Assembly: GCA_964291235.2 (NCBI GenBank)
Contig: OZ219815.1
Coordinates: 448,001-512,000, forward strand
DNA: 64,000 nt
Origin: Vicinamibacteria bacterium
GTDB taxonomy: Bacteria; Acidobacteriota; Vicinamibacteria; Marinacidobacterales; Marinacidobacteraceae
Reading direction: 5' to 3'
Position numbers and translations under genes: made by a program. How positions within the stretch are numbered: position 1 is the stretch's first letter; the number at the start of each line of letters is the position of its first letter. This document shows, one piece after another, positions 31,658 to 43,071 of this stretch. The notes under the pieces are model-generated. The model was not told the origin of the DNA. It saw nothing but the letters and a program-made list of their open reading frames with translations, and did not search any database.

Positions 31658-33604
31658 CTACCCCCCACGCGCGTGGCGGAGCGGAATCTGGATGAGGAAC
31701 CACCCGAGCGCCGCGAACACCAGGAATCCCGGCACTCCGGAGGGCATGGACACGAGCGTCGGGAACTGGAACGCCGCGACCGCCAGCCCGGACAGCGCCA
31801 CTCCCATGAGCGCTTCGCCCGCGATGAGTCCGGACGCGATCAGCGTTCCGGCACTTTCTCCCAGCGAGCGACGCTCGGCCGGCAGCTTGGCCATCTGGCG
31901 GTCGCTCAGCCAGCGGAAGCAACCGCCGACGAAGATCGCGAAGGTGGTCTGCAGCGGCAGGTACATCCCCACCGCGATCAGCATCGGGGACGGAGCCTGG
32001 ATCAGGATCAGGAAGAGACACAGCGCGATCCCGAAGACCACGAGCGGCCAGCGCATGTCGCCGCCGACGATCCCCTGGGACAGGAGCGCCATGAGGCCCG
32101 CCTGGGGCGCCGGCAGTTCTTCGCCGCCGACTCCGATGCCGCCGGCGGCGATGTCCCCCTCGTGGAGCAGCATCATCGGCAGCACCAGGAAGAACGACGC
32201 GAAGATCACCCCGATGATCTCCGCCCACTCCATGCGGAAGGGCGTGCCGCCGAGGATCTGGCCCACTTTCAGGTCCTGCAGCATGTCCCCGGCGACCGCG
32301 CAGGCGCAGCAGACGACCGCGGCGACTCCCAGCACCGCCGCCACGCCTGCGGTCCCGGTGACCCCCAGGAAGGTCATCAGCAGCGCCGCGAGCAGCAGCG
32401 TCGAGATGGTGAGGCCGGAAACCGGATTCGAAGAACTCCCGATCGTGCCGACGAGATAGCCGGCCACCGCCGAGAAGAAGAAGCCGGCGACGATCATCAC
32501 GATCGCCGAACCGAGCGCGCCGAGCGGCTGCCCGGTGTAGTAGTTGTAGAGGAAGAACGTCGGGATGATCAGCGCCACCACCCCGGCGGCTGTCCAACTG
32601 AACGGGATGTCGCGGTCTTTTTCATCCTGGCCCGCCGGATGGCCGTGCTTCAGCTCGCCGATGGACCGCTTGAGTCCCTCGCCGAGGGACTTCCGCATCC
32701 GGAGCAGGGTCCAGACCGCACCGGCGATCATCGCCCCCACCGCGATCGGCCGCACGAGTTCGGCCCACACCACACTGCTGACCGCGGTCCAGTCGGCGCC
32801 CGCCGCCGCCAGCTTGCCGGCGTCGGCGAACTCCGGATTGAAGAAGAGGACCGCCGGGATCATGAACCACCAGGCGAAGACCCCGCCGGAGAAGGTGAGC
32901 GCCGCAAGCCGGAAACCGATGATGTAACCGACCCCGAGGTAGGCGGGCGAGGCGGCCGGAGTGGAAAAAGGCAAGACCCCCGGCTGTGCCGCCGCGCCGA
33001 AGGACTGGCCCCCGACGGTGACCGAGCCCTGGAAGGAGCCGTAGCCGAGAGCGCCGGAAATGCGGTCGGTGAAGAGCTGGATGCCCTTCGAGTTCTTGAG
33101 GACCTCGATGAGCGCGCCCACCCCCATCATCTGAAAGAGCAGCCGGCCACCGCTGGCGCCCTTACCGGCGCGGTGGATCTCGGCGGCGGCAACCGACTCG
33201 GGGAACGGCAGCTCGGGATCGGTGACCATGCTCCGCCGCAGGATGACGACGAACAGGATCCCGAGCAGCCCGCCGACCAGCATCAGCAGGGTGCTCTCGA
33301 GGTAGTTGAACTCCTCCCAGGCGCCCGCCATCAGGAACGCCGGCAGGGTGAAGATCGCCCCCGCGGCCAGCGCCTCTCCCACCGAAGCGGTGGTGCGGGC
33401 GATGTTCTCTTCGAGGAGGCTGCCCTTGAAGAGTCCCCGGATGACGACCATGGAAACGACCGCGGCGGGGAAGGTCGCCGCGACCGTCTGGCCGGCCCGG
33501 ATGCCGAGGTAGGCGTTCGCCGCTCCCAGCACGACGGCCATGAAGAGGCCGAGGAGAAGAGCCCGGAGCGTGAACTCGCGGGTGCTGCCGGATCCGTTCG
33601 CCAT
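31658..33604 (-). CDS. OPT family oligopeptide transporter
   Basis: REFTLRA, ANAYLG, ENIART, LPFPESVAAAE, SSSNPVSG, QDLKVG, PAPQA, SGLIAGE. Confidence 0.92.
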   Translation of the reverse strand: MANGSGSTREFTLRALLLGLFMAVVLGAANAYLGIRAGQTVAATFPAAVVSMVVIRGLFKGSLLEENIARTTASVGEALAAGAIFTLPAFLMAGAWEEFNYLESTLLMLVGGLLGILFVVILRRSMVTDPELPFPESVAAAEIHRAGKGASGGRLLFQMMGVGALIEVLKNSKGIQLFTDRISGALGYGSFQGSVTVGGQSFGAAAQPGVLPFSTPAASPAYLGVGYIIGFRLAALTFSGGVFAWWFMIPAVLFFNPEFADAGKLAAAGADWTAVSSVVWAELVRPIAVGAMIAGAVWTLLRMRKSLGEGLKRSIGELKHGHPAGQDEKDRDIPFSWTAAGVVALIIPTFFLYNYYTGQPLGALGSAIVMIVAGFFFSAVAGYLVGTIGSSSNPVSGLTISTLLLAALLMTFLGVTGTAGVAAVLGVAAVVCCACAVAGDMLQDLKVGQILGGTPFRMEWAEIIGVIFASFFLVLPMMLLHEGDIAAGGIGVGGEELPAPQAGLMALLSQGIVGGDMRWPLVVFGIALCLFLILIQAPSPMLIAVGMYLPLQTTFAIFVGGCFRWLSDRQMAKLPAERRSLGESAGTLIASGLIAGEALMGVALSGLAVAAFQFPTLVSMPSGVPGFLVFAALGWFLIQIPLRHARGG

Positions 33605-33704
33605 GGGGCCTCCTAGAGTCGGGGTAGCCGGCCCCGCGTTATATCACCGAGCGCGAATTCCCTGTCGCCCTGCCCGTCCCGAGTCCTTAGACTTCGGCGC
33701 CTTC

Positions 33705-36700
33705 GTGCACCACCGGAACGGCGAACTCTTTTTCGCGCCCACCGACCTCAGCCGGTTCCTCGCCTGCCGGCATCTGACGACTCTCTCCCGTGCCGTCGCG
33801 CTCGGGGAGACTTCCCCGCCGCCGGTCTTCGAGGATCCGCGGCTGGAGGCGCTGATTGAAGCCGGAAGGCGGCACGAGGCCAGAATCCTCGAGCGGTACC
33901 AGACGGAGGGCCGGAGCGTCGAGACGATCGCGGATTCTGGCAGGTACGCCGAACGGCATGAGCGGACCCTCGATGCCATGCGCCGCGGGGTGGAGGTGAT
34001 CTACCAGGGAAGGCTCGGTGCCGGAACCTGGTCGGGCTCTCCCGACTTCCTGATCTGGGTGGGCCGACCCAGCGCCCTCGGAGACTGGTCCTACGAGGTG
34101 GTGGACGCCAAGCTCGCCACCATGCCCAAGGCCGACGCGGTACTTCAGGTCGCCGTCTATTCGAGGCTGCTTGCGAAGGTCCAGGGCACAGCCCCCGCTC
34201 AAATGCACCTGGAACTCGGTCGCGACGAGGGACGCGAGAGCGTCCGGGTCACGGACTTCGCCGCGTTCGAACGCAGCCTCAGGCGGCAGTTCGACGAGCA
34301 CTGCGCCGCGCCACCCGCCACCTATCCGGAGCCGGTCGACCATTGCCCTCGGTGCGAATGGAACGGGGCCTGCCAGGAACGGCGCCGGAGGGACGACCAC
34401 CTGTCGCTGGTCGCGAATTCCACCCGCCACCAGCACCGCAGGCTTGAAACACGTGGGGTCACGACCCTGACCGGTCTCGCCCGGCTTGCTCTCCCGCTGG
34501 ACCCGCCGCTTCGGCGTGTGGCGCCGGCCGTCCTCCAGCGCATCCAGCGGCAGGCCCGGGCGCAGCTCACCGGGCGCGAACGGGGACGGCCATTCCACAA
34601 ACTGATCCTGCCGCCGGAGGAAGGACGCGGGCTGCTGAAACTCCCCGAGCCGTGCGAGGGAGACCTGTTTTTTGACATCGAGAGCTCCCGGCCCGGTGTG
34701 GACGATGCGCTCGAATACCTGTTCGGCTTCGTGGATGGGGATGGCCGCTACGAGGAGCGCTGGGCCTTCCGCCGCGATGACGAACGCCGGATGTTCGAGG
34801 ACTTCATGGATCTGGTAGCGGACCGGCGGGAGAAGTTCCCGGATCTCCACATCTTCCACTACGGCGGCTACGAGACAGGGGCCCTGAAACGGCTGATGAG
34901 CCGTTACGCCACCCGCGAGGACGCGATGGACGGCTTGCTGCGGCGAGGGGTGTTCGTGGACCTGCTGCAGGTGGTCCGGCAGGGCGTCGTGGCGTCGGTG
35001 GAGAGCTACTCGATCAAGGAGATGGAGCCGTTCTACGGCTTTGATCGGGGGCAGGAACTACCCGAAGCCGGCCGGGCGCTCGCCCGCATGGACGCTCTGC
35101 TCGATTCCGGGGACGCTGCCGGAGTGCCGCCGGAGGACCGCGAGATCATCCGCCGCTACAACCGGGAGGATTGTCTTTCCACCCTGGCGCTCCACGGCTG
35201 GCTCGAAGAGCGTCGGCGGGAACTGACGGACCGCATCGGGCCGCGGGACCGGCCCGTCGTGGAAATCAGGCCGGAGGATGAACAGACGCAAACGGAGGCG
35301 GCGGCGCGGGTATCGGAACTCGTCGCGCGGCTCGGAGCAGGTCCCGCCGAAGAGGCGGGGGCGCGGCGGCTGCTGGGCTACCTGCTCGACTACTACCGGC
35401 GGGAGGACAAATCGAAGTGGTGGGAGTACTTCCGGGTGAAGGATCTCGACGCCCAGGAACTCGTCGAAGATTCCGCGCCGCTGGGCGGGATCGAGTTTGA
35501 TCGGGAACTCGGACGGGAACAGCGGTCCGTACTGCACCGTTACCGGTTCCCGCTACAGGAGCACCGCATCAAGGTCGGAGGGAAGCCAGAGGACTTCGCC
35601 ACCGGCAAATCGTCGGGCGAGGTCTTCGAGATCTCGGAAAGAACCCTGACCCTGAAGCGCAGCAGCACGGCCCAGCAGCAACCCCATCCGCGCGCGCTGG
35701 TGCCGGCCGAACGGGTGCGGCCGGCGCCCAAGCCCGGATCGCTGTTCCGCCTCGGCGAGGCGGTCGCGGAGGCCGGGTTCGCCGATGACAGTCCGCGCCG
35801 GGCTGCATTCGACCTCCTTCGCCGGATCCCGCCGCGCGGCCGCATCGCCGGAGAACCCCTGGTCCGCCCGGGCGAGGACATCATCGCCGGCGCTCGGCGC
35901 CTCGCACTCGATCTCGACGGGGGAGTGCTGCCGATCCAGGGACCGCCCGGCAGCGGCAAGACCTACACCGGCGCCCGCGTCATCACCGCGCTGTTGGCGG
36001 CCGGGCGGAGGGTCGGCGTAACGGCGCAGAGCCATCGCGTCATCACAAACCTGCTCGACAGCGTGTGCTCGGCGGCGACGGAGGAAGGAGTCGTCTTCCG
36101 AGGCATCCAGGGGGTGCGGGAGACGGGTTGCGACGATCCCCGGATCAAGGTCCTGGCAGGTTCCTCCAAGCTAACGGCGGACGCCGCGACGGACCCCGGC
36201 GTCCACCTGATCGCGGGCACCGCCTGGGTCTGGGCCCGGGACGACATGACCGATTCCGTGGACGTGCTGGTCGTGGATGAAGCCGGGCAGTTCGCACTGG
36301 CGGACGCGCTTGCCTCCGCCTCGGCGGCGGACAGCCTGATTCTGCTCGGCGACCCGGCCCAACTCGACCAGGTGACCCAGGGCGACCACCCGGAGGGGTC
36401 CGACGTTTCCGCGCTCGACCATCTCCTCGGCGAGCACCAGACGATGCCGCCCGACCGCGGCCTCTTTCTCGAAGCCACATGGCGGATGCACCCGGACATC
36501 TGCGGTTTCACCTCCGAGCAGTTCTACGAGGACCGGTTGGCAGCGCGCCCGGGACTGGAGCGACAGCGGGTCGAGGGCGGGCCGCTACCGGGCGCCGGGC
36601 TTCGGTTCGTCCCCGTCGCACACGAAGGCAACCAGACGGAGTCGCCAGAGGAGGCCGAACGGATCGCCGACCTGGTGGACGGCCTGCTCGAAGGCGCGTC

Positions 36701-37082
36701 CTGGACGGACGACCGGGGCGTCGCGCGTCGGGTTACCTCCAACGACATCCTCGTCGTCGTTCCCTATAACGATCAGCTTGCCTTGCTGGGCCGTCGGCTC
36801 GGGGACCGGGTGCGCGGGGTCGGGACCGTGGACAAGTTCCAGGGCCAGGAGGCCCCCGTCGTGTTCTTCTCGATGGCAACCTCGACCCCGGAGGCGGCCC
36901 CGCGGGGGATGGACTTCCTCTATTCGTCGCACCGGCTGAACGTGGCGACATCGCGCGCCCGCTGCCTCGCGGTCGTGGTCGCGAGCCCGGAACTCTTCTT
37001 TCCCGAGTGCAAGACCCCGCACCAGATGCGGCTCGCCAACGCGTTCTGCCGTTTCCGCGAGCTTGCCGACGTGGTCCAGTAG
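33705..37082 (+). CDS. TM0106-family RecB-like nuclease + RNase H-like domain + SF1 (DNA2/UPF1-like) helicase
   Basis: GSPDFL...EVVDAK, CPRCEW..AC, FFDIES...YNREDC, QGPPGSGKT, DEAGQ, GDPAQL, TVDKFQGQE, RLNVATSRA. Confidence 0.88.
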   Translation: MHHRNGELFFAPTDLSRFLACRHLTTLSRAVALGETSPPPVFEDPRLEALIEAGRRHEARILERYQTEGRSVETIADSGRYAERHERTLDAMRRGVEVIYQGRLGAGTWSGSPDFLIWVGRPSALGDWSYEVVDAKLATMPKADAVLQVAVYSRLLAKVQGTAPAQMHLELGRDEGRESVRVTDFAAFERSLRRQFDEHCAAPPATYPEPVDHCPRCEWNGACQERRRRDDHLSLVANSTRHQHRRLETRGVTTLTGLARLALPLDPPLRRVAPAVLQRIQRQARAQLTGRERGRPFHKLILPPEEGRGLLKLPEPCEGDLFFDIESSRPGVDDALEYLFGFVDGDGRYEERWAFRRDDERRMFEDFMDLVADRREKFPDLHIFHYGGYETGALKRLMSRYATREDAMDGLLRRGVFVDLLQVVRQGVVASVESYSIKEMEPFYGFDRGQELPEAGRALARMDALLDSGDAAGVPPEDREIIRRYNREDCLSTLALHGWLEERRRELTDRIGPRDRPVVEIRPEDEQTQTEAAARVSELVARLGAGPAEEAGARRLLGYLLDYYRREDKSKWWEYFRVKDLDAQELVEDSAPLGGIEFDRELGREQRSVLHRYRFPLQEHRIKVGGKPEDFATGKSSGEVFEISERTLTLKRSSTAQQQPHPRALVPAERVRPAPKPGSLFRLGEAVAEAGFADDSPRRAAFDLLRRIPPRGRIAGEPLVRPGEDIIAGARRLALDLDGGVLPIQGPPGSGKTYTGARVITALLAAGRRVGVTAQSHRVITNLLDSVCSAATEEGVVFRGIQGVRETGCDDPRIKVLAGSSKLTADAATDPGVHLIAGTAWVWARDDMTDSVDVLVVDEAGQFALADALASASAADSLILLGDPAQLDQVTQGDHPEGSDVSALDHLLGEHQTMPPDRGLFLEATWRMHPDICGFTSEQFYEDRLAARPGLERQRVEGGPLPGAGLRFVPVAHEGNQTESPEEAERIADLVDGLLEGASWTDDRGVARRVTSNDILVVVPYNDQLALLGRRLGDRVRGVGTVDKFQGQEAPVVFFSMATSTPEAAPRGMDFLYSSHRLNVATSRARCLAVVVASPELFFPECKTPHQMRLANAFCRFRELADVVQ

Positions 37083-37164
37083 CGCCAGGAGGGAAACGGG
37101 TCACTGTCCGGCGGCCTGCCGAGATGGGGACCTCGCGGGCTACGCCGCCGCCCGCCGGCGGGCT

Positions 37165-37190
37165 GTGCCGGCCTGAAGGCCGGCGGTCCC
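37165..37190 (-). repeat. Single REP-like palindrome (GGACCGCCGGCCTTCAGGCCGGCAC) directly after the RLP-cupin stop codon
   Basis: Same core as the 652-680 family; between convergent genes. Confidence 0.6.
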
Positions 37191-38758
37191 TACTCCGCCC
37201 GCATGGGGCGGTCGCGGTCGTGGTCCACGACGCAGAAGAATCCGAAGGGCTCCTCGGTCTCATTCCGCAACTGGTGGGACTCCAGAGGGCCGACGCAGGC
37301 GACATCGAGGTGCCGGAGCGGCAGGCGCCGATCTCCGAGGAGCAGGACCCCTTCCCCCCGGGCCCCGATGACGACGTGGGTATGGACGTGCTTCTCGAGG
37401 CTGGTGTGACCTCCGGGTTCCACCTCGAAGTAGCGCAGGTCCGAGCGCGTCCGTTCTCCGAACTTCCCCACCAGTTCCACCCGGCGCACTCCCCGGAAGG
37501 CGAGATCCCCGGCGTCCTTGTAGGGAGAACTGTCCCGGCCCTCCCAGTTCCAGTCCCGCCGGAAGGCGAGCCGCCGGGGCTCCGGCAGCGCAGGCTGCCG
37601 CGGGTCCGAGGGCTCGATCGACACCTCCGGGTGAACCTCTCGAATCCTCTCGAGGATCTCGCGGGTTCCCGCCTCGATTCCCTCGGGATGACCGAGCAGA
37701 GCGCCGCCGATCAGCAACACGGTGTCGGGGCCGTAGGTCTGACAGACGCGGCCGACGTCCGCCGGTCCCATTCCGCCGGCGGGGGCCGGCCACGCCGGAC
37801 CGAGCGCGCCGAGCGGCTCGCGGAGACGCTCGGTGATCTCCGCACATGCGGCTCGGGTGTAGGCGAAGCGGCCACCGGCGTCCGGAAACACCGAGATGTC
37901 GGCGCCCGCGAGCCGGAACAGGGTGCCGAGAAGGACCCCGTGGGCCACCCCGTGTTCCGGCGCGTGGGTATAGACCCCGGTCAGGGACGGATGCGCCATG
38001 AAGAGCAGCGGATAACTCTCCGCCAGGGCGCGCATCGTGTCGAGGCCGGTGATCATCGGGCAGATGAGAACTCCGGGAAGTCCGGCCTCGGCAACGAACT
38101 CGACGTAACGTTCGAGTTCGTCCGCCGGGGCGCCGGCGTGCGGGAGGTAGAGGCACCGGCCGCCGCTGGCCTGATTGCCCCGGTCCACCGCTGCCGCGCA
38201 GGCCAGGACGCGGCGCCGAAAAGACTCGAAGTCGTCCGTCAGGTTCTGGTCGTCCTTCACCAGGTCGCCGCCGCCCCGGGCGAACGCCTCCCCGATGGAC
38301 GCCAGCTCCGAAACGCTTGAGCCCTGGGGCTTGAGCGCGGTAGCCAGCAGGGGCCGTCCCAGGACCCCGCACCTCCGCCGCACTCCCTCCACGCCGTGGT
38401 TGGGGCCGGCCAGGCTATCGAGCAACGGTCGCGGCGGTTGCAGGTCCACCAGCCGCACCCGGCCGTACATCGGCGCGTTGCCGATCGCGACCGCCAGCAA
38501 TCCGAATAGATCCGAAGCGAGGTCGGCCGCGTAGCTGATGGTGACGCGGCTCGCACCCGGAACATCCGGATCGGGCGTCACCGCCTCGACCCGGCCGACG
38601 ATTTCGTCCCGGATCTTCCCGGGCGGAATGAGCGCCTCCGGGATTTCCACGGTCTGTTCGATGGCGATGAGGCGGGCCAGGTCCTCCGGCGCGGCGGCGT
38701 CCGGCCGGACCCGGTAGACGGCCGTGGCCCGATCGGAATCCGGCTGCGGGCCGACCAC
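37190..38758 (-). CDS. RuBisCO-like protein (form IV) fused to a C-terminal cupin domain
   Basis: IEQTVE, TALKPQG, GGGDLVKDDQ, AGADI...GGRF, PAGGM, LIGG; cupin LRYFEVEPGGHTSLEKHVHTHVV...HQLRN...PFGFFCVVD..RDRP. Confidence 0.88.
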   Translation of the reverse strand: MVGPQPDSDRATAVYRVRPDAAAPEDLARLIAIEQTVEIPEALIPPGKIRDEIVGRVEAVTPDPDVPGASRVTISYAADLASDLFGLLAVAIGNAPMYGRVRLVDLQPPRPLLDSLAGPNHGVEGVRRRCGVLGRPLLATALKPQGSSVSELASIGEAFARGGGDLVKDDQNLTDDFESFRRRVLACAAAVDRGNQASGGRCLYLPHAGAPADELERYVEFVAEAGLPGVLICPMITGLDTMRALAESYPLLFMAHPSLTGVYTHAPEHGVAHGVLLGTLFRLAGADISVFPDAGGRFAYTRAACAEITERLREPLGALGPAWPAPAGGMGPADVGRVCQTYGPDTVLLIGGALLGHPEGIEAGTREILERIREVHPEVSIEPSDPRQPALPEPRRLAFRRDWNWEGRDSSPYKDAGDLAFRGVRRVELVGKFGERTRSDLRYFEVEPGGHTSLEKHVHTHVVIGARGEGVLLLGDRRLPLRHLDVACVGPLESHQLRNETEEPFGFFCVVDHDRDRPMRAE

Positions 38759-38766
38759 TTCGGAAC

Positions 38767-39831
38767 TCAGCGGTGCCGCCGCGACCGGCGCGGACCGCTC
38801 TCGCCGAGTCGAAGCTCGGTGTCGGCGGTGAGATCGGGGCCGGCGATCTCACCGCGGAGGAGCGCCAGGTGGCCGGCGGCGGCGATCATGGCGGCATTGT
38901 CGGTCGAGAGGGCGATGCTCGGGTAGAACACCGGCAATCCCCGCTCCTGGCCGAGCGCCTGGAAGTTGGCGCGCAGGGCCGAGTTGGCGGCGACTCCTCC
39001 CGTCAGCAGCACCGCCTGCGCTTCGAACATGCGCAGCGCACGATCCACCGAACGCCGAAGGGCGCGGACGACCGCCGACTGAAAGCTGGCGGCCAGGTCC
39101 CGCAGGTCTTCCCGGTCGAACGGGTCTTGCTCATCAGCCAGCGGCTCGATGCCCTCCTGCTCGATGAGCCGGAGGACCTGTGTCTTGAGACCCGAGAAAC
39201 TGAAATCGAGTTTCGCCCCGTCCGAAAAGTGTGGGAGAGAAAACAGGTGACGGCGCGCATCGCCCCTTTGCGCCAGGCGGTCGAGGATCGGCCCTCCCGG
39301 ATAACCGAGCCCGAGCCGCTTGGCGAGCTTGTCGTACGCCTCGCCAGCCGCGTCGTCGCGCGTCTTGCCGAGCAGCCGATAGGAACTCTCGGCTTCAAGC
39401 AGGAAGAGGCTCGTGTGCCCTCCGGAGACCACCAGCGCGAGCGCCGGGTGGGGCACGTCCCCGCCCTCCAGATAGCAGGCGCGAATGTGGCCCTCGATGT
39501 GGTCCACGCCGACCAGGGGAATGCCGCGGGCGAAAGCGAACGCCTTGGCGAAGGAGACCCCGGCGAGCAGGGCCCCGATCAGGCCGGGGCCGTTCGTCAC
39601 CGCGACCGCCTCGACATCATCCACCTCGATACCCGCCTTCTGGAGCGCCTGCCGCACCACGGGCGAAAGGTTGAGGAGGTGTTGCCGGGAGGCAATCTCG
39701 GGGACCACCCCGCCGAAAGCGGCGTGCTGGGCGACCTGGGAGGAGACGACGTTCGAGAGGATGCGCCGGCCGTCCTCGACCACGGCGGCCGAGGTCTCGT
39801 CGCAGGAAGTCTCGATCCCGAGGATGAGCAT
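38767..39831 (-). CDS. tsaD: tRNA N6-threonylcarbamoyladenosine transferase
   Basis: ILGIETSCDET, GGVVPEIASR, HIEGH, VSGGHT, DDAAGEAYDK, GGVAAN, TDNAAMIA. Confidence 0.97.
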   Translation of the reverse strand: MLILGIETSCDETSAAVVEDGRRILSNVVSSQVAQHAAFGGVVPEIASRQHLLNLSPVVRQALQKAGIEVDDVEAVAVTNGPGLIGALLAGVSFAKAFAFARGIPLVGVDHIEGHIRACYLEGGDVPHPALALVVSGGHTSLFLLEAESSYRLLGKTRDDAAGEAYDKLAKRLGLGYPGGPILDRLAQRGDARRHLFSLPHFSDGAKLDFSFSGLKTQVLRLIEQEGIEPLADEQDPFDREDLRDLAASFQSAVVRALRRSVDRALRMFEAQAVLLTGGVAANSALRANFQALGQERGLPVFYPSIALSTDNAAMIAAAGHLALLRGEIAGPDLTADTELRLGESGPRRSRRHR

Positions 39832-39917
39832 GGGTTCAGGGGACGATGCCAAACAGCCAGTCGCGAGCGTGCTGCGTCAATGTGCAACCACACTCCGCTG
39901 GCATCGTAGATCCCGCA

Positions 39918-40625
39918 TCAAGAGTAGTGCGCTTCCTGTAACTGGAGTTGATCCGTAGCGTCGATGACATCGGGCTCGTCCCACACCTCGTCCTGCAGAA
40001 GGAACGTGTGACTGTTGGTGTGGCGGGCGTACTTGGAACGGTCGCGAACGACGCCGACCGGGATCAGGGCCGCCCGCACCACACGGTAATTCTCGTCGAA
40101 CAGCACCGCGGCAAGGATGTCGAACCCGTTGAGATCGCGGATTGGCGACAGAAGCCGAGAAGGATGGCGACCAGTGAGTCGGCGTCCCTTGATCTGGTAG
40201 CGCTTGCCATCCCTGTCTCTCGCATCGAGCGCCTTCCCGGGGTCCAATTCCCACCCGTAGGCGGCGCAGAACAGGTACTCCGCGAGATCGCCGGTCGGAT
40301 TGTTCTCCGTTCTCAGCACTCTGCGCGCGCGCAGTTCTTTCAAGGCCCCAACGTGGCAAGCGAGGAGTTCAGCAATCGACTTCTCCTTCGGGGTCGTTCG
40401 GTCTTCGCGCAGCAGCACGACGCTATCCGTCTGCGGAGTGCCTTCGGTGAGGCGGGAAAGCGCATCGGTGCGCTTCCGCAACTCCACCATGCGCTGGATC
40501 CGGTCGAACCGCTCCGTCAACGCGCGCCGAGCCTCGGCTTCCATGGAGCGGTCGTTCGCCTTGGCCTCGGCCTTCAGCGCCTGGATCACATGATCGTCCA
40601 GATTTCGAATCGTAAGGCTGCCCAT
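39918..40625 (-). CDS. FitA/Arc-like ribbon-helix-helix domain fused to a putative PD-(D/E)xK-like nuclease domain
   Basis: MGSLTIRNLDD...AKANDRSMEAEAR...TDSVVLLREDR, then SIAELL...NNPTGDLAE...DA...YQIKGRR...FD; GGAGG RBS. Confidence 0.7.
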   Translation of the reverse strand: MGSLTIRNLDDHVIQALKAEAKANDRSMEAEARRALTERFDRIQRMVELRKRTDALSRLTEGTPQTDSVVLLREDRTTPKEKSIAELLACHVGALKELRARRVLRTENNPTGDLAEYLFCAAYGWELDPGKALDARDRDGKRYQIKGRRLTGRHPSRLLSPIRDLNGFDILAAVLFDENYRVVRAALIPVGVVRDRSKYARHTNSHTFLLQDEVWDEPDVIDATDQLQLQEAHYS

Positions 40626-40673
40626 GCCAACGCCTCCACAGCGTTCTGATTGCGTGATGCTAGCACATTGCAC

Positions 40674-41726
40674 TCATCGCGCGTGCAGAGCGGCAAGACC
40701 TCCCAGCGAAACGGTGAACGGCGGGTGAGCGATGCCTCTCTCGGTGACGATTGCGGTGATGTAGCGAGCCGGGGTGACGTCGAACGCGGGATTCCAGACC
40801 GGGACCCCGTCGGGCGCCACTCGCTGACCGGCGATCGCGATGACTTCGTGCGGACTCCGTTCCTCGATGGGAATATCCGCTCCTCGGGGCGTTTCGAGGT
40901 CCACGCTCGAAAAAGGAGCCGCGACCACGAACGGCACGGCGTGCTCCTTCGCGAGGACGGCTGCCTGATACGTGCCGATCTTGTTCGCGGTATCGCCGTT
41001 CGCGGCAATGCGGTCGGCGCCCACGACCACGGCGTCCACCTCGCCGCCGGCGAGCAGGGAACCGACCATCCCGTCGGTGATCAGGGTCACGGGGATCCGG
41101 TCTGCCATGAGTTCCCACGCGGTGAGACGGGCGCCCTGAAGATACGGGCGGGTTTCGGGAGCGAACACCCGGACCGGACGGCCGGACTCCACTGCCGCCC
41201 GGACGATGCCGAGCGCCGTCCCGTAACCCGACGTCGCGAGGCTCCCCGCGTTGCAGTGGGTGAGGACTCGCGCCGGTCCCTCGCCGGGTAGCAGGCTGGC
41301 GCCGAGCGCGCCGAGGCGCCGGTTCGCCTGCAGATCCTCGGCGGCGATGCAGTCCGCCTCGTCCTCAAGGCCGCTGACGATCGCTTCGGGGGCGGCCAAG
41401 AGGAGCGATTCCAACCGGGATCGCATCCGGTCCAGGGCGTTTCGCAGGTTTACCGCCGTGGGGCGCGTGTCCAGCAGACCCGCCGCCAACCCATCGAAGA
41501 GAGCGGTATCCGGCTTGGTCCCCGAATTGCGACCGAATCCGATCACCACCGCGTAGGCAGCCGCGATCCCGATGGCCGGAGCCCCGCGAATCGCCATTTC
41601 CTCGATGGCGTCTCCCACCTGGTGCGCTTCCGCGCACTCGATCCACACCTCCTCGAACGGGAGCCGGCGCTGGTCCAGCAGGTGGAGAACCCGCCGCTCG
41701 GAATCCCACCGGAACGGACGGACCAT
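40674..41726 (-). CDS. mtnA: S-methyl-5-thioribose-1-phosphate isomerase
   Basis: LDQRRLP, IRGAPAIG, RPTAVNL, THCNAGSLAT, ETRPYLQGARLTAWE, GADRIAANGDTANKIG, NPAFDVTP. Confidence 0.95.
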   Translation of the reverse strand: MVRPFRWDSERRVLHLLDQRRLPFEEVWIECAEAHQVGDAIEEMAIRGAPAIGIAAAYAVVIGFGRNSGTKPDTALFDGLAAGLLDTRPTAVNLRNALDRMRSRLESLLLAAPEAIVSGLEDEADCIAAEDLQANRRLGALGASLLPGEGPARVLTHCNAGSLATSGYGTALGIVRAAVESGRPVRVFAPETRPYLQGARLTAWELMADRIPVTLITDGMVGSLLAGGEVDAVVVGADRIAANGDTANKIGTYQAAVLAKEHAVPFVVAAPFSSVDLETPRGADIPIEERSPHEVIAIAGQRVAPDGVPVWNPAFDVTPARYITAIVTERGIAHPPFTVSLGGLAALHAR

Positions 41727-41760
41727 GGGCGCACCGTAGCAGCGTACCGGGGTAGGGGCC

Positions 41761-41987
41761 CAGGAGCGCCGGCCTCCGGCCGGCATCGCCGAGCGAAGCG
41801 AGGCGAAACTCCCATCGCCAATCCTCCAGGATGGCGCCGCAGCCCGGCAGGGTGGCGCCGCGCCACAGCCACTCCCGGGTTGTAGGGCGTTACGCCGTCC
41901 CCGTTTGGGTGAGCGCCATCGAGGATGACCAGGTCTGGGAGTTTCGCGGCCTGCGGCCGCGATGCCGGTCTGGAGACCGGCGCTCCT
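41761..41987. repeat. Inverted pair of REP-like units (REPIN-like element)
   Basis: CAGGAGCGCCGGCCTCCGGCCGGCATCGC at 41761-41789 and GCGATGCCGGTCTGGAGACCGGCGCTCCT at 41959-41987, each with an inner hairpin and GAAACTCCC/GGGAGTTTC. Confidence 0.8.
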
Positions 41988-41999
41988 AACTGAGTCCGA

Positions 42000-42033
42000 C
42001 TGGTGCGGAACGGGATTCCCCGTTCCGCACCAG
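42000..42033 (-). terminator. 15-bp perfect stem-loop downstream of atpE (no strong U-tract)
   Basis: CTGGTGCGGAACGGG-ATTC-CCCGTTCCGCACCAG. Confidence 0.6.
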
Positions 42034-42040
42034 ATCGGGC

Positions 42041-42364
42041 TCAGCCGTTCCAGAGAACGAAGAAGATGATGAGCGCGGTAACGAAGGCGTAGATGACCAG
42101 CGACTCGATCAGCACCAGGCCGAGGAGCAGCGAGAAGCGGATCTGCGGGGCGGCGCCCGGGTTCCGGGCGAGGCTCTCGCAGGCGCCGACCACGGCGCGC
42201 CCCTGCGCGGTAGCGCCGAAGGCGGCGGCGATGGCGATCGCGCCACCCGCCGAAATCAGCGCCCACTGACTGACAACCGGATCCCAGCTTCCCTGGGCGA
42301 AAACCGGGGAAGCGGCGAGAACGCCGAAGACGGCCAGCAGGGTCGTCCGAAACTTGTTGGACAC
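42041..42364 (-). CDS. atpE: ATP synthase Fo subunit c, with N-terminal signal-like extension
   Basis: AQG...ARNP loop, LIESLVIY ion-binding Glu; AGGAGA RBS. Confidence 0.95.
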   Translation of the reverse strand: MSNKFRTTLLAVFGVLAASPVFAQGSWDPVVSQWALISAGGAIAIAAAFGATAQGRAVVGACESLARNPGAAPQIRFSLLLGLVLIESLVIYAFVTALIIFFVLWNG

Positions 42365-42381
42365 GATGATTTCTCCTTGGA

Positions 42382-43071
42382 TCAGTGCTCCTCGGCAGCG
42401 ACTGCGCCGCCGAGATAGATGACAGTGAGCATGGTGAAGACGAAGGCCTGGAGCGTGCTGCCGAAGACGCCGAAAGCCATCATCGGGACCGGCACCACAA
42501 ACGGGATCAGGAACGCGAACACCACGACGACCAGCTCTTCACCGAAGATATTTCCGAAGAGCCGGACCGAAAGCGAAAGAATGCGGCTGAGATGGCTGAT
42601 GATTTCGATCGGCAGCATCACAACCGCGAGCCAGGGACTGGGCCCGAGGAAGTGGGCAAAGTACTTCTTCGCCCCGTGAGCCCGGATTCCCTGGAAGTTG
42701 TAATAGAGGAACGCGACGATGGCGCAGCCCACCGGCATGTTGATGCTCACGGTGGGGGATGAGAAGAACGGCACCAGCCCGAACAGGTTGCTGACCAGGA
42801 TGAACAGCGCCAGCGTGCCCACCAGGCCGAGGAACGGGCGCCCCTTGGCGCCGACGTTGTCCCGGAGCAGCGAGAGCAGCCCGCCGACCACCGCTTCGAG
42901 TACCAGTTGGAGCCGTCCCGGGTTCTCCACCGAGATCCGCCGGCGGAAGAAGATCGCGAAGCCGGAGAGAACGACCGCCACGAAGATCGCCATCACCACG
43001 TGGTCCGGGGGATGGACGTGGAACACCGCCTCGATCCAGTGGGTCAGGAATGAGTAGTGGTGGATTTCCAT
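42382..43071 (-). CDS. atpB: ATP synthase Fo subunit a
   Basis: SNLFGLVP, SLSVRLFGNIFG, LQAFVFTMLT.IY. Confidence 0.96.
   Translation of the reverse strand: MEIHHYSFLTHWIEAVFHVHPPDHVVMAIFVAVVLSGFAIFFRRRISVENPGRLQLVLEAVVGGLLSLLRDNVGAKGRPFLGLVGTLALFILVSNLFGLVPFFSSPTVSINMPVGCAIVAFLYYNFQGIRAHGAKKYFAHFLGPSPWLAVVMLPIEIISHLSRILSLSVRLFGNIFGEELVVVVFAFLIPFVVPVPMMAFGVFGSTLQAFVFTMLTVIYLGGAVAAEEH

Follow-up and report, generated by a model that had tools for sequence, protein, structure and literature searches.

A RuBisCO-like protein fused to a cupin in Vicinamibacteria: a predicted bifunctional enzyme of the MTA-isoprenoid shunt

A gene in a 64,000-nucleotide stretch of Vicinamibacteria DNA, which we call the window, raises the question of what a RuBisCO-like protein (RLP) and a cupin do together in one polypeptide. 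In Rhodospirillum rubrum the RLP Rru_A1998 is the isomerase and the cupin Rru_A2000 is the sulfurylase of the MTA-isoprenoid shunt, according to the available parts of two reports (PMC4958253; PMC5893883), of which the first names Rru_A2000 an MTXu-5P sulfurylase (PMC4958253) and the second describes the cupin reaction as glutathione-mediated (PMC5893883). Together the two R. rubrum enzymes convert a by-product of S-adenosylmethionine use to a precursor of isoprenoids and methanethiol. The fusion joins members of these two protein families, in the order of their reactions, but what are two genes in R. rubrum is one polypeptide here. Our reading, to which we give a probability of about 0.72, is that the gene encodes a bifunctional enzyme of this shunt which arose from an rlp-cupin gene pair, was acquired already fused, and replaces a class II aldolase. 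The initial annotation had proposed a bifunctional RLP-cupin enzyme and this is supported by the sequence comparisons below, in which both domain assignments hold.

The fusion gene and its relatives

The features of the locus are collected in Table 1. The 522-residue ORF had been described as uninterrupted and the ORF list and the translation agree with this, as the frame passes through the junction of the two domains with neither a stop codon nor a frameshift, and all the motifs that had been quoted (TALKPQG, KDDQ, a Pro-rich stretch near residues 380-397, WEG, YK, RYFEVEPGGHTSLEKHVHTH, PFGFFCVVD, and RDRP) are present in the translation. Judged from sequence, the ORF is a real gene and not a chance frame in 70% G+C DNA because it has Pfam and PDB matches and the frame is kept in relatives. 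Its AlphaFold2 model has a mean pLDDT of 91.6 and a pTM of 0.76. Contigs from three public runs cover the ORF with zero insertions or deletions and one of them, of 1775 nt, spans 37199-38973 and is identical to the window; the three runs are from one study that may include the source sample and therefore they are not independent support. A scan for promoters and terminators from 36900 to 42500 gave nothing exceeding chance.

Table 1. Positions of the fusion gene, its parts, and its neighbours in the window
Feature	Position	Strand	Evidence
Fusion gene, 522 aa, GTG start, 8 nt past the tsaD stop	37190..38758	(-)	ORF list, translation, Pfam, PDB matches, AlphaFold2 model
RuBisCO-like domain (form IV, DeepYkr-type), residues 1 to about 375-378	37625..38758	(-)	3qfw sequence and fold match, residue tallies
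Pro-rich linker, about residues 379-400	37559..37624	(-)	Translation, model
Cupin, Rru_A2000/MTXu-5P methylsulfurylase type, residues about 401-522 and stop codon	37190..37558	(-)	PDB matches, residue conservation
tsaD, directly upstream of the fusion, 8-nt gap	38767..39852	(-)	TIGR03723, 403 bits (cut-off 296)
mtnA (S-methyl-5-thioribose-1-phosphate isomerase)	40674..41726	(-)	TIGR00512, 427 bits (cut-off 279)

When the domain architecture was examined in other proteins, the 120 best relatives in the database, which are 501-581 aa long, had both Pfam domains, RuBisCO_large and Cupin_2, on record in 119 cases. The RLP and the cupin share one frame at 41 of 80 related genome loci, from five phyla, and at 6 others there are two genes, rlp and immediately after it the cupin gene, in the order of the fusion. 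Relatives of Schlesneria paludicola are among the carriers of the fusion. MtnA was found in every genome that has the fusion or the adjacent pair (48/48). The available part of one report gives the same order, rlp then cupin, for the adjacent genes of RLP1 (RPA2169) and the cupin (RPA2170) of Rhodopseudomonas palustris (PMC5893883), so that gene order there equals domain order here, although in R. palustris the genes are separate. MtnBD of Tetrahymena thermophila, in which consecutive enzymes of methionine salvage, one of them a cupin, are fused, is a precedent for such a fusion, but as far as the available text of that report goes its enzymes and chemistry are different and it requires oxygen (PMC3698126). 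Database entries name the RLP-cupin fusions only 'RuBisCO large subunit C-terminal-like domain-containing protein', and our literature searches on RLPs, cupin methylsulfurylase, the MTA-isoprenoid shunt, and 3QFW found no paper describing one. The fusion is a new form of a known pathway.

The two domains and the linker

In the N-terminal part, Pfam RuBisCO_large (PF00016) scored 73.5 bits against a cut-off of 30.1 over residues 124-366. In the PDB sequence search residues 10-363 matched 3qfw with an E-value of 5e-63 (217 bits), and the other matches of this part were 4nas (167 bits), 2oek (143 bits; MtnW, E-value 1.5e-40), 1ykw (88 bits), and 2qyg (88 bits). The Foldseek list for the predicted model was filled by RLP and RuBisCO structures and its top match was 3qfw_B, with a TM-score of 0.93 on the target, an rmsd of 2.1, and an identity of 36%. 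Thus, the earlier assignment to the form IV RLPs is borne out, the nearest structure by sequence and by fold being this RLP from R. palustris, which we infer to be RLP1 rather than RLP2 as RLP2 has a separate entry, 2qyg. Both sequence and model put the domain nearer to the DeepYkr-type RLPs than to the clades of MtnW, of Photo, or of true RuBisCO. The fold that it has in common with the MtnW/YkrW enolases (2oek, 2zvi, and 4nas) gave TM-scores of 0.82-0.85 and the wider pathway, methionine salvage, is also common to both, but their partner enzymes differ and the curated NCBIfam cut-offs for MtnW were missed by far (PRK09549, 190.8 bits against 409; TIGR03332, 148.2 bits against 513.6), which argues against a grouping with these enolases. 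The RuBisCO cut-offs were missed as well (TIGR03326, 149.6 bits against 497; PRK04208, 151.4 bits against 438), and K-P-Q and K-D-D-Q replace K-P-K and K-D-D-E, in agreement with the statement in the initial annotation that the protein does not fix CO2.

We take K175 and the KDDE positions of RuBisCO to be Lys143 and Lys168-Asp169-Asp170-Gln171 in the fusion, which has the active-site pattern K-P-x plus K-D-D-(H/Q); these residues presumably mark the DeepYkr clade. Lys143, Lys168, and Asp170 were each kept in 139 of 141 family representatives, and position 171 is His in 112 and Gln in 26 of them. The fusion has KDDQ whereas 3qfw has KDDH, and in the family tree the fusion sits within a well-supported clade of fused and unfused members that all have Gln. 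The Gln that had been called unusual is therefore a common variant of a clade. The domain is a predicted 1,3-isomerase of 5-methylthioribulose-1-phosphate (MTRu-1P) that would form 1-methylthioxylulose-5-phosphate (MTXu-5P) and also MTRu-5P.

In the C-terminal part, of 125 residues, Pfam Cupin_2 scored 26.2 bits over residues 443-511, just below its cut-off of 27.2. When the whole protein was searched against the PDB, residues 393-521 matched 3ibm (1.4e-29) and 3jzv (8e-20), and when the cupin part was searched alone it aligned end to end with 3ibm (7.8e-31), 3jzv (6.9e-21), and 3kgz (3.4e-18), the next matches being 15 orders of magnitude weaker. The query had 140 residues, of which 16-137 are covered by the alignment with 3jzv, which is Rru_A2000, and in this way the methylsulfurylase type that had been assigned to the cupin is supported. 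Thirteen residues, R442, Y443, F444, E445, E455, H457, H459, H461, H495, C509, R515, D516, and P518, are conserved in at least 36 of the 39 cupin-bearing representatives; for E455, H457, H459, and C509 the count is 38/39 and for H461 and H495 it is 37/39. The His/Glu cluster and the G-F-x-C Cys, which presumably have catalytic roles, align with counterparts in 3jzv, 3ibm, and 3kgz as well. No acireductone dioxygenase (ARD) family was among the Pfam matches of the fusion at E-values up to 0.1. The cupin is a predicted MTXu-5P methylsulfurylase that would release the methylthio group and leave 1-deoxyxylulose-5-phosphate (DXP).

The Pro-rich linker that had been noted between the domains is found in the translation, and in the model it has no helix or strand and the lowest pLDDT blocks (69-78). 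Family members differ in linker length, from about 15 up to 190 residues, and in the fused relatives neither its length nor its sequence is conserved. The initial annotation proposed that the enzyme may channel the intermediate; with a length so variable, a flexible tether fits better than a fixed tunnel.

The pathway in this genome and in the class

According to our proposal, MtnA, which is encoded two genes upstream, would make MTRu-1P, the RLP domain would isomerise it to MTXu-5P, and the tethered cupin would remove the methylthio group in a thiol-assisted reaction giving DXP and methanethiol. Dxr would then pass DXP into the MEP pathway, and methanethiol may be returned to methionine via O-acetylhomoserine sulfhydrylase. 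What the sequences show are the identities of the domains, the conservation of their fusion, the gene inventories, and the distributions; the two enzymatic steps, their substrate, the thiol used, and an onward flow to isoprenoids we infer. This genome has Dxr (445 bits), IspH (225 bits), and an O-acetylhomoserine/O-acetylserine sulfhydrylase (574 bits), and MtnA, Dxr, and the sulfhydrylase, which R. rubrum has too, are all above curated cut-offs. Hence, of the R. rubrum-type pathway that had been invoked, these three enzymes are present, while MtnP, MtnN, MtnK, and glutathione synthetase were not found in this genome, which is scored 90% complete and against which completeness its gene absences are read. 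The MtnP model TIGR01694, whose cut-off is 274.85 bits, scored at best 80.9 bits, and this on a PNP-type phosphorylase; tblastn with the MtnP of a relative matched PNP only. The models for MtnN (TIGR01704), MtnK (TIGR01767), and the glutathione synthetase GshB (TIGR01380) gave no match in this genome. SAM decarboxylase, the usual source of MTA, was not found in it either, and its sole spermidine-synthase-like domain is within a 1030-aa TPR protein, there being no canonical SpeE. Dxs was also not found in this genome, whereas R. rubrum is scored Dxs-positive in a supplement table (PMC10663253).

The gene tsaD adjoins the fusion in all 16 close loci and the two genes are probably co-transcribed. 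Upstream of tsaD, in a conserved arrangement, is mtnA, for which the TIGR00512 match covers residues 190-514 of a long ORF (40674..42266) and whose start we placed at Met181. The argument from an operon is weaker than it looks because mtnA and tsaD are also adjacent in genomes that do not have the fusion, namely, in all 25 genomes checked by hand from the 124 class genomes outside the fusion family and in one genome of the fusion family itself (G116). The pair of mtnA and tsaD occurs throughout the class and predates the fusion. The fusion is far from mtnA in two genera of its family, and in other phyla no mtnA was found within 8 kb of it.

Within the class only one family carries the fusion. 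Among 151 class genomes, the class II aldolase was present in 4 of the 24 with the fusion compared to 124 of the 127 without it, and in those 4 the aldolase gene directly adjoins the fusion gene. The aldolase was found in 122 of the 124 class genomes outside the family and also in the two members of the family that have no fusion (G116 and G167). MtnP was above its cut-off in 116 of the 124 genomes outside the family but in none of the 27 sampled within it. In this class, then, the fusion takes the place of the class II aldolase, and the DHAP shunt (MtnP or MtnN/MtnK, MtnA, and Ald2) is apparently the route of the rest of the class. MtnA and MTRu-1P or 5-deoxyribulose-1-phosphate are common to that shunt and to the route of the fusion, but the aldolase cleaves the sugar to give DHAP plus an aldehyde whereas the fusion would keep the five carbons as DXP. 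We suggest that an adjacent rlp-cupin gene pair gave rise to the fusion, that the family acquired the gene already fused, and that in this family it would take the place of the aldolase of the DHAP-shunt type downstream of MtnA.

It could be asked if the fusion simply explains the missing Dxs. This was rejected, as Dxs was missing in 150 of the 151 sampled class genomes, with and without the fusion alike, and 18 of the 41 genomes of other phyla with the single-ORF fusion do have Dxs. Luteitalea pratensis is a cultured member of the class that has no Dxs. Since Dxs is missing in nearly all sampled genomes of the class and the fusion is in one family only, DXP need not come from the fusion alone, and we think it unlikely that the fused enzyme supplies most or all of the DXP that enters the MEP pathway in this Dxs-less, genome-reduced family. 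A fused PDH-E1 alpha/beta-like gene near ispH was considered as a DXP synthase and set aside, for an acyl-CoA dehydrogenase gene follows and it looks like an ordinary keto-acid dehydrogenase. The class keeps Dxr with no recognisable Dxs and one family appears to have swapped the aldolase branch of SAM by-product salvage for a DXP-forming branch, so that there is now a definite group of genomes in which it can be tested what replaces Dxs.

Substrate and reach of the fusion

The main substrate may instead be 5-deoxyribulose-1-phosphate, from the 5'-deoxyadenosine of radical SAM enzymes, which the RLP would convert directly to DXP by the same 1,3-isomerisation, the cupin being secondary or acting on the methylthio analogue only. 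By its structural formula the isomerised 5-deoxy sugar would be DXP, and 5'-deoxyadenosine may be the commoner by-product here because the genome has no SAM decarboxylase and no canonical SpeE. According to the available part of one report, MtnA is an isomerase of both 5-methylthioribose-1-phosphate and 5-deoxyribose-1-phosphate and Ald2 takes both ribulose phosphates (PMC10441430). We regard this possibility as decidedly unlikely, as the strict conservation of the cupin, with its invariant Cys and metal-type ligands, argues for a needed C-S cleavage, and no test of RLP activity on a 5-deoxy substrate was found in the available parts of the literature examined.

Another possibility is that the fusion acts on a sugar phosphate unrelated to SAM by-products and that the name of the MTA shunt is wrongly carried over to it. 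RLPs of other clades act in apiose or tetronate catabolism. The absence of MtnP, MtnN, MtnK, and MTA-forming enzymes from the gene inventory would fit this, as would neighbourhoods outside the family that give no clue to the pathway and the Gln in place of His at the metal site, which marks a separate clade. Against it are the constant presence of MtnA in carrier genomes, the complementary distribution with an aldolase that acts on the product of MtnA and whose gene is adjacent in four genomes, and the score of only 70 bits for the OiaX (oxo-isoapionate decarboxylase) model, and we hold it to be very improbable. That the fusion belongs to canonical methionine salvage, with an MtnW-type enolase of diketo-methylthiopentyl-phosphate joined to an acireductone-dioxygenase-like cupin, is scarcely credible, for although PRK09549 is the top-scoring NCBIfam model and acireductone dioxygenase is a cupin too, all MtnW models stay far under their cut-offs, the cupin matches Rru_A2000-type structures and no ARD family, and MtnB, which is needed for the substrate of the enolase, was not found in this genome either by an Aldolase_II match or by tblastn with the protein of a relative.

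As a natural 'Rosetta stone', the fusion is evidence for joint action of the RLP isomerase and the cupin methylsulfurylase. If it serves the MTA-isoprenoid shunt, this pathway would be found not just in a few proteobacteria but also in uncultured Acidobacteriota, Gammaproteobacteria, Planctomycetota, Fibrobacterota, and others. It would also be a single-gene part for Dxs-free formation of DXP, which is of relevance to terpenoid engineering. The neighbourhoods of 12 loci in other taxa showed no conserved partner gene; one of these loci is beside sulfate ABC transporter genes and one is beside a TauE sulfite exporter gene. MtnA-RLP fusions were looked for as extra Rosetta-stone evidence and there were none among 19 long representatives, which comprised RLP-cupin proteins having a long linker or a second cupin, proteins with unassigned N-terminal extensions, and one fusion of an inositol monophosphatase to an RLP.

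Identity of the RLP and cupin halves

The gene that fuses a RuBisCO-like protein (RLP) domain to a cupin is an uninterrupted 522-aa ORF, as the initial annotation had it, all the motifs quoted there are present in the translation, and it starts 8 nt past the stop of tsaD. Pfam RuBisCO_large was matched at residues 124-366 with 73.5 bits (cut-off 30.1) and Cupin_2 at residues 443-511 with 26.2 bits, which is one bit below its cut-off, and no acireductone-dioxygenase family was among the Pfam matches of the protein. Among PDB sequences, the best match of residues 10-363 was 3qfw (E 5e-63, 217 bits), followed by the MtnW-type RLPs 4nas (167 bits) and 2oek (143 bits), and for 1ykw and 2qyg, which are Photo-type RLPs, the score was about 88 bits. 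No curated NCBIfam model of MtnW or of true RuBisCO was reached, the scores being far below the cut-offs. These data bear out that this half is an RLP and not a CO2-fixing RuBisCO, and also that it is unlikely to be of the MtnW type. The AlphaFold2 model, for which 46 fused relatives were the input, had a mean pLDDT of 91.6 and a pTM of 0.76, and its top Foldseek match was 3qfw_B (TM 0.93 on target, rmsd 2.1, 36% identity), entitled 'Rubisco-like protein from Rhodopseudomonas palustris'. The last 140 residues alone aligned end to end with the small cupins 3ibm (7.8e-31), 3jzv (6.9e-21) and 3kgz (3.4e-18), after which further PDB matches were only 1e-5. Since 3jzv is Rru_A2000 by its entry name, this alignment suggests that the earlier naming of the cupin as methylsulfurylase-type is right at the family level.

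In Rhodospirillum rubrum, Rru_A1998 is a DeepYkr RLP that isomerises 5-methylthioribulose-1-phosphate (MTRu-1P) and Rru_A2000 is a cupin 1-methylthioxylulose-5-phosphate (MTXu-5P) sulfurylase (excerpts of PMC4958253). The same two steps are also set out, with a 3:1 product mix, in parts of PMC5893883, where the cleavage in the cupin step is glutathione-mediated and RPA2169 and RPA2170 of R. palustris are adjacent genes. For the genome of the window we infer a similar route, in which the RLP domain would isomerise the product of MtnA, the cupin domain would de-thiomethylate the isomerised sugar to 1-deoxyxylulose-5-phosphate (DXP), Dxr would carry DXP onward, and a sulfhydrylase would recapture the methanethiol. 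No RLP-cupin fusion was described in the literature found on RLPs, cupins, the MTA-isoprenoid shunt and 3QFW, and excerpts of a 2026 RuBisCO superfamily survey cite 3QFW and make no mention of a cupin (PMC13454268).

Spread, conservation and origin of the fusion

The fusion is real and widespread. The best 120 database relatives are all 501-581 aa long, and both Pfam domains are present in 119. When one genome per species was scanned, 98 relatives gave 80 loci that were kept, and a frame check placed both domains in one ORF in 41 of these. At 6 loci the RLP gene is followed immediately by a separate cupin gene, one (L053) has a frame change within the cupin, another (L057) has the cupin 2 kb upstream of the RLP, and RLP alone and cupin alone account for 11 and 20 loci, respectively. 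The single ORFs come from Acidobacteriota (Vicinamibacteria and 'Ca. Marinacidobacterium'), Gammaproteobacteria, Planctomycetota (Schlesneria, Scalindua), a Chitinispirillaceae MAG and an unclassified bacterium. In contigs from three runs of a single study, which may include the source sample and so give no independent support, the ORF is covered without indels, and the entire gene is present unchanged in one of these contigs. The contig word depth rose 80-100-fold at 37101-37201 in every run examined because the hairpin repeat past the stop codon is multi-copy, with 126 more blastn matches in the genome, some as tandem arrays.

Residue conservation was examined in the best 150 representatives at 50% identity plus the query, of which 141 rows were classed, 30 as RLP plus cupin and 111 as RLP only, although some of the latter may be gene fragments. 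Lys, Asp and His at the positions that we take to be equivalent to RuBisCO K175, K201, D203 and H294 were kept in at least 138 of the 141 rows, and at the presumed E204 position 112 rows have H and 26 have Q (7 of 30 fused and 19 of 111 unfused). In the FastTree of these rows the clade of the window protein (19 rows, support 99) is entirely Q and has 6 fused and 13 unfused members. As it mixes the two, KDDQ is a clade trait and not a peculiarity of the fusion, and the Gln is not unusual as had been thought. Of the 39 rows with a cupin, at least 36 retain the cupin residues R442, Y443, F444, E445, E455, H457, H459, H461, H495, C509, R515, D516 and P518. The linker ranges from about 15 to 190 residues among fused proteins and is not conserved. 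Many of them have an S-x-C-E-x-P-like linker motif (P0124, P0127-P0129, P0131, P0133, P0136-P0138, P0140, P0144 and P0151), absent from the clade of the window protein. The Cys of this motif might serve as a built-in second thiol. P0155 (726 aa), another family representative, carries an inositol-monophosphatase-family domain fused ahead of its RLP, which belongs to this subfamily too.

Switches between fused and unfused states numbered at least 12 on the 141-row FastTree (21 by parsimony) and 7 on an IQ-TREE of 61 RLP domains from named genomes. On the latter tree the 23 sequences from Vicinamibacteria fall into a single clade (support 100) that is nested in a group shared with Gammaproteobacteria and Elusimicrobia, and the Thermoanaerobaculia RLPs with a separate adjacent cupin form a distant clade. 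Among the 151 sampled genomes of the class the fusion gene was absent outside f1, the family of the window genome, and since there is no such gene elsewhere in the class, f1 most likely acquired it already fused.

Gene neighbourhood and pathway inventory

Features of the window and of its genome (G000)
Feature	Location	Strand	Description
Minus-strand run	37190..41726	-	order mtnA, 251-aa insert, tsaD, fusion gene
mtnA	upstream of insert	-	TIGR00512, 427 bits (cut-off 279)
Insert gene	39918..40673	-	251 aa, between otherwise adjacent mtnA and tsaD
tsaD	38767..	-	403 bits (cut-off 296)
Fusion gene	37190..38758	-	522-aa single open frame, GTG start
Hairpin repeat	~37143..37190		G+C-rich, 35-49 nt, intergenic, directly past fusion stop codon
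Nuclease-helicase gene	33540..37082	+	TM0106-type RecB-like nuclease fused to SF1 helicase, 1180 aa, convergent with fusion gene
nupC and PNP-type phosphorylase unit	G000:C2:841402-843461 (L109:6402-8461), L109:5436-6332		beside divergent hypoxanthine phosphoribosyltransferase

The order mtnA, tsaD and fusion gene was kept in all 16 close loci, in 7 of which the insert gene had no match. The insert protein has a FitA-like ribbon-helix-helix N-terminus and matches a type II methyl-directed restriction enzyme at residues 99-244 (PADLOC mREase_II, 163 bits). Adjacent and co-directional mtnA and tsaD were found in all 25 genomes hand-checked out of the 124 class genomes outside f1, and also in G116, an f1 member that lacks the fusion, which indicates that the fusion was added behind a pre-existing pair. 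In this class-wide pair (38767..41726) the gene of a methylthioribose enzyme precedes that of a tRNA t6A enzyme. In the f1 genera g2 and g3 the fusion gene no longer adjoins mtnA, and no conserved neighbours were seen in other phyla. The best PADLOC match of the nuclease-helicase was MkoA (130 bits), and in genome G098 (locus L104) a class II aldolase gene takes its place.

In G000, a genome of 3.45 Mb in 2 contigs with a completeness score of 90%, MtnA, Dxr, IspH and O-acetylhomoserine/serine sulfhydrylase were all above curated cut-offs, and the fusion gene is the only RuBisCO-family gene. Not found in this 90% complete genome were HMG-CoA reductase, MtnN, MtnK, SAM decarboxylase, GshB, class II aldolase, Dxs, whose three weak matches are a PDH-E1 alpha/beta fusion, a transketolase and PDH E1 beta, and MtnP, whose lone match is the PNP-type phosphorylase; tblastn with the real Dxs, MtnP and aldolase proteins of relatives gave the same absences. 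Perhaps the PNP acts on deaminated nucleosides imported by NupC and makes MTR-1-P, the MtnA substrate, or 5-deoxyribose-1-P. The PNP-type phosphorylase is the only MtnP-like gene in f1, whose 27 sampled genomes lack MtnP. A 1030-aa protein (G000:C1:822071-825163; L088:94-3186) with a spermine/spermidine-synthase domain and TPR repeats stands in this genome, which has no SAM decarboxylase match.

Distribution of Dxs, MtnP and class II aldolase

When Dxs was examined in 48 genomes (41 with the fusion in a single ORF, 1 where it is frameshifted and 6 in which the two genes are adjacent), it was above cut-off in 23 and split across two contig ends in 1 more, and it was absent from all 22 Vicinamibacteria-type genomes and from two MAGs, one of Lysobacterales and the other of Thermoanaerobaculia. 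The simple reading would be that the fusion is the missing DXP synthase, but the class control opposes it. The class sample of 151 genomes, of which 117 are of high quality and several single-contig, includes G000 and the unpublished G158, on which alone no claim depends. Dxs was found in 1 of the 151 and in none of the 117, Dxr was above cut-off in 144, and the fusion occurs in only 24, all of f1. As class genomes that lack the fusion also lack Dxs, an unrecognised source of DXP must exist there. In the supplement of PMC10663253 Luteitalea pratensis is among the species that lack Dxs and was scored as being without both shunt enzymes, and the shunt is raised as a possible Dxs bypass, untested there, in excerpts of PMC10663253 and PMC11730185.

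MtnA was above cut-off in 144 of the 151 genomes. MtnP was above cut-off in 116 of the 124 genomes outside f1 vs 0 of 27 in f1, and a class II aldolase of the FucA/ribulose-1-P aldolase type, under every curated cut-off including that of MtnB, was present in 122 of the 124 and in just 4 of the 24 genomes with the fusion. In all 4 the aldolase gene directly adjoins the fusion gene, and the two f1 members without the fusion, G116 and G167, both have the aldolase. The f1 kin are not independent, and as few as two or three events may underlie this pattern. These distributions suggest that f1, whose genomes are small, gained the fusion and lost both MtnP and, in most members, the aldolase.
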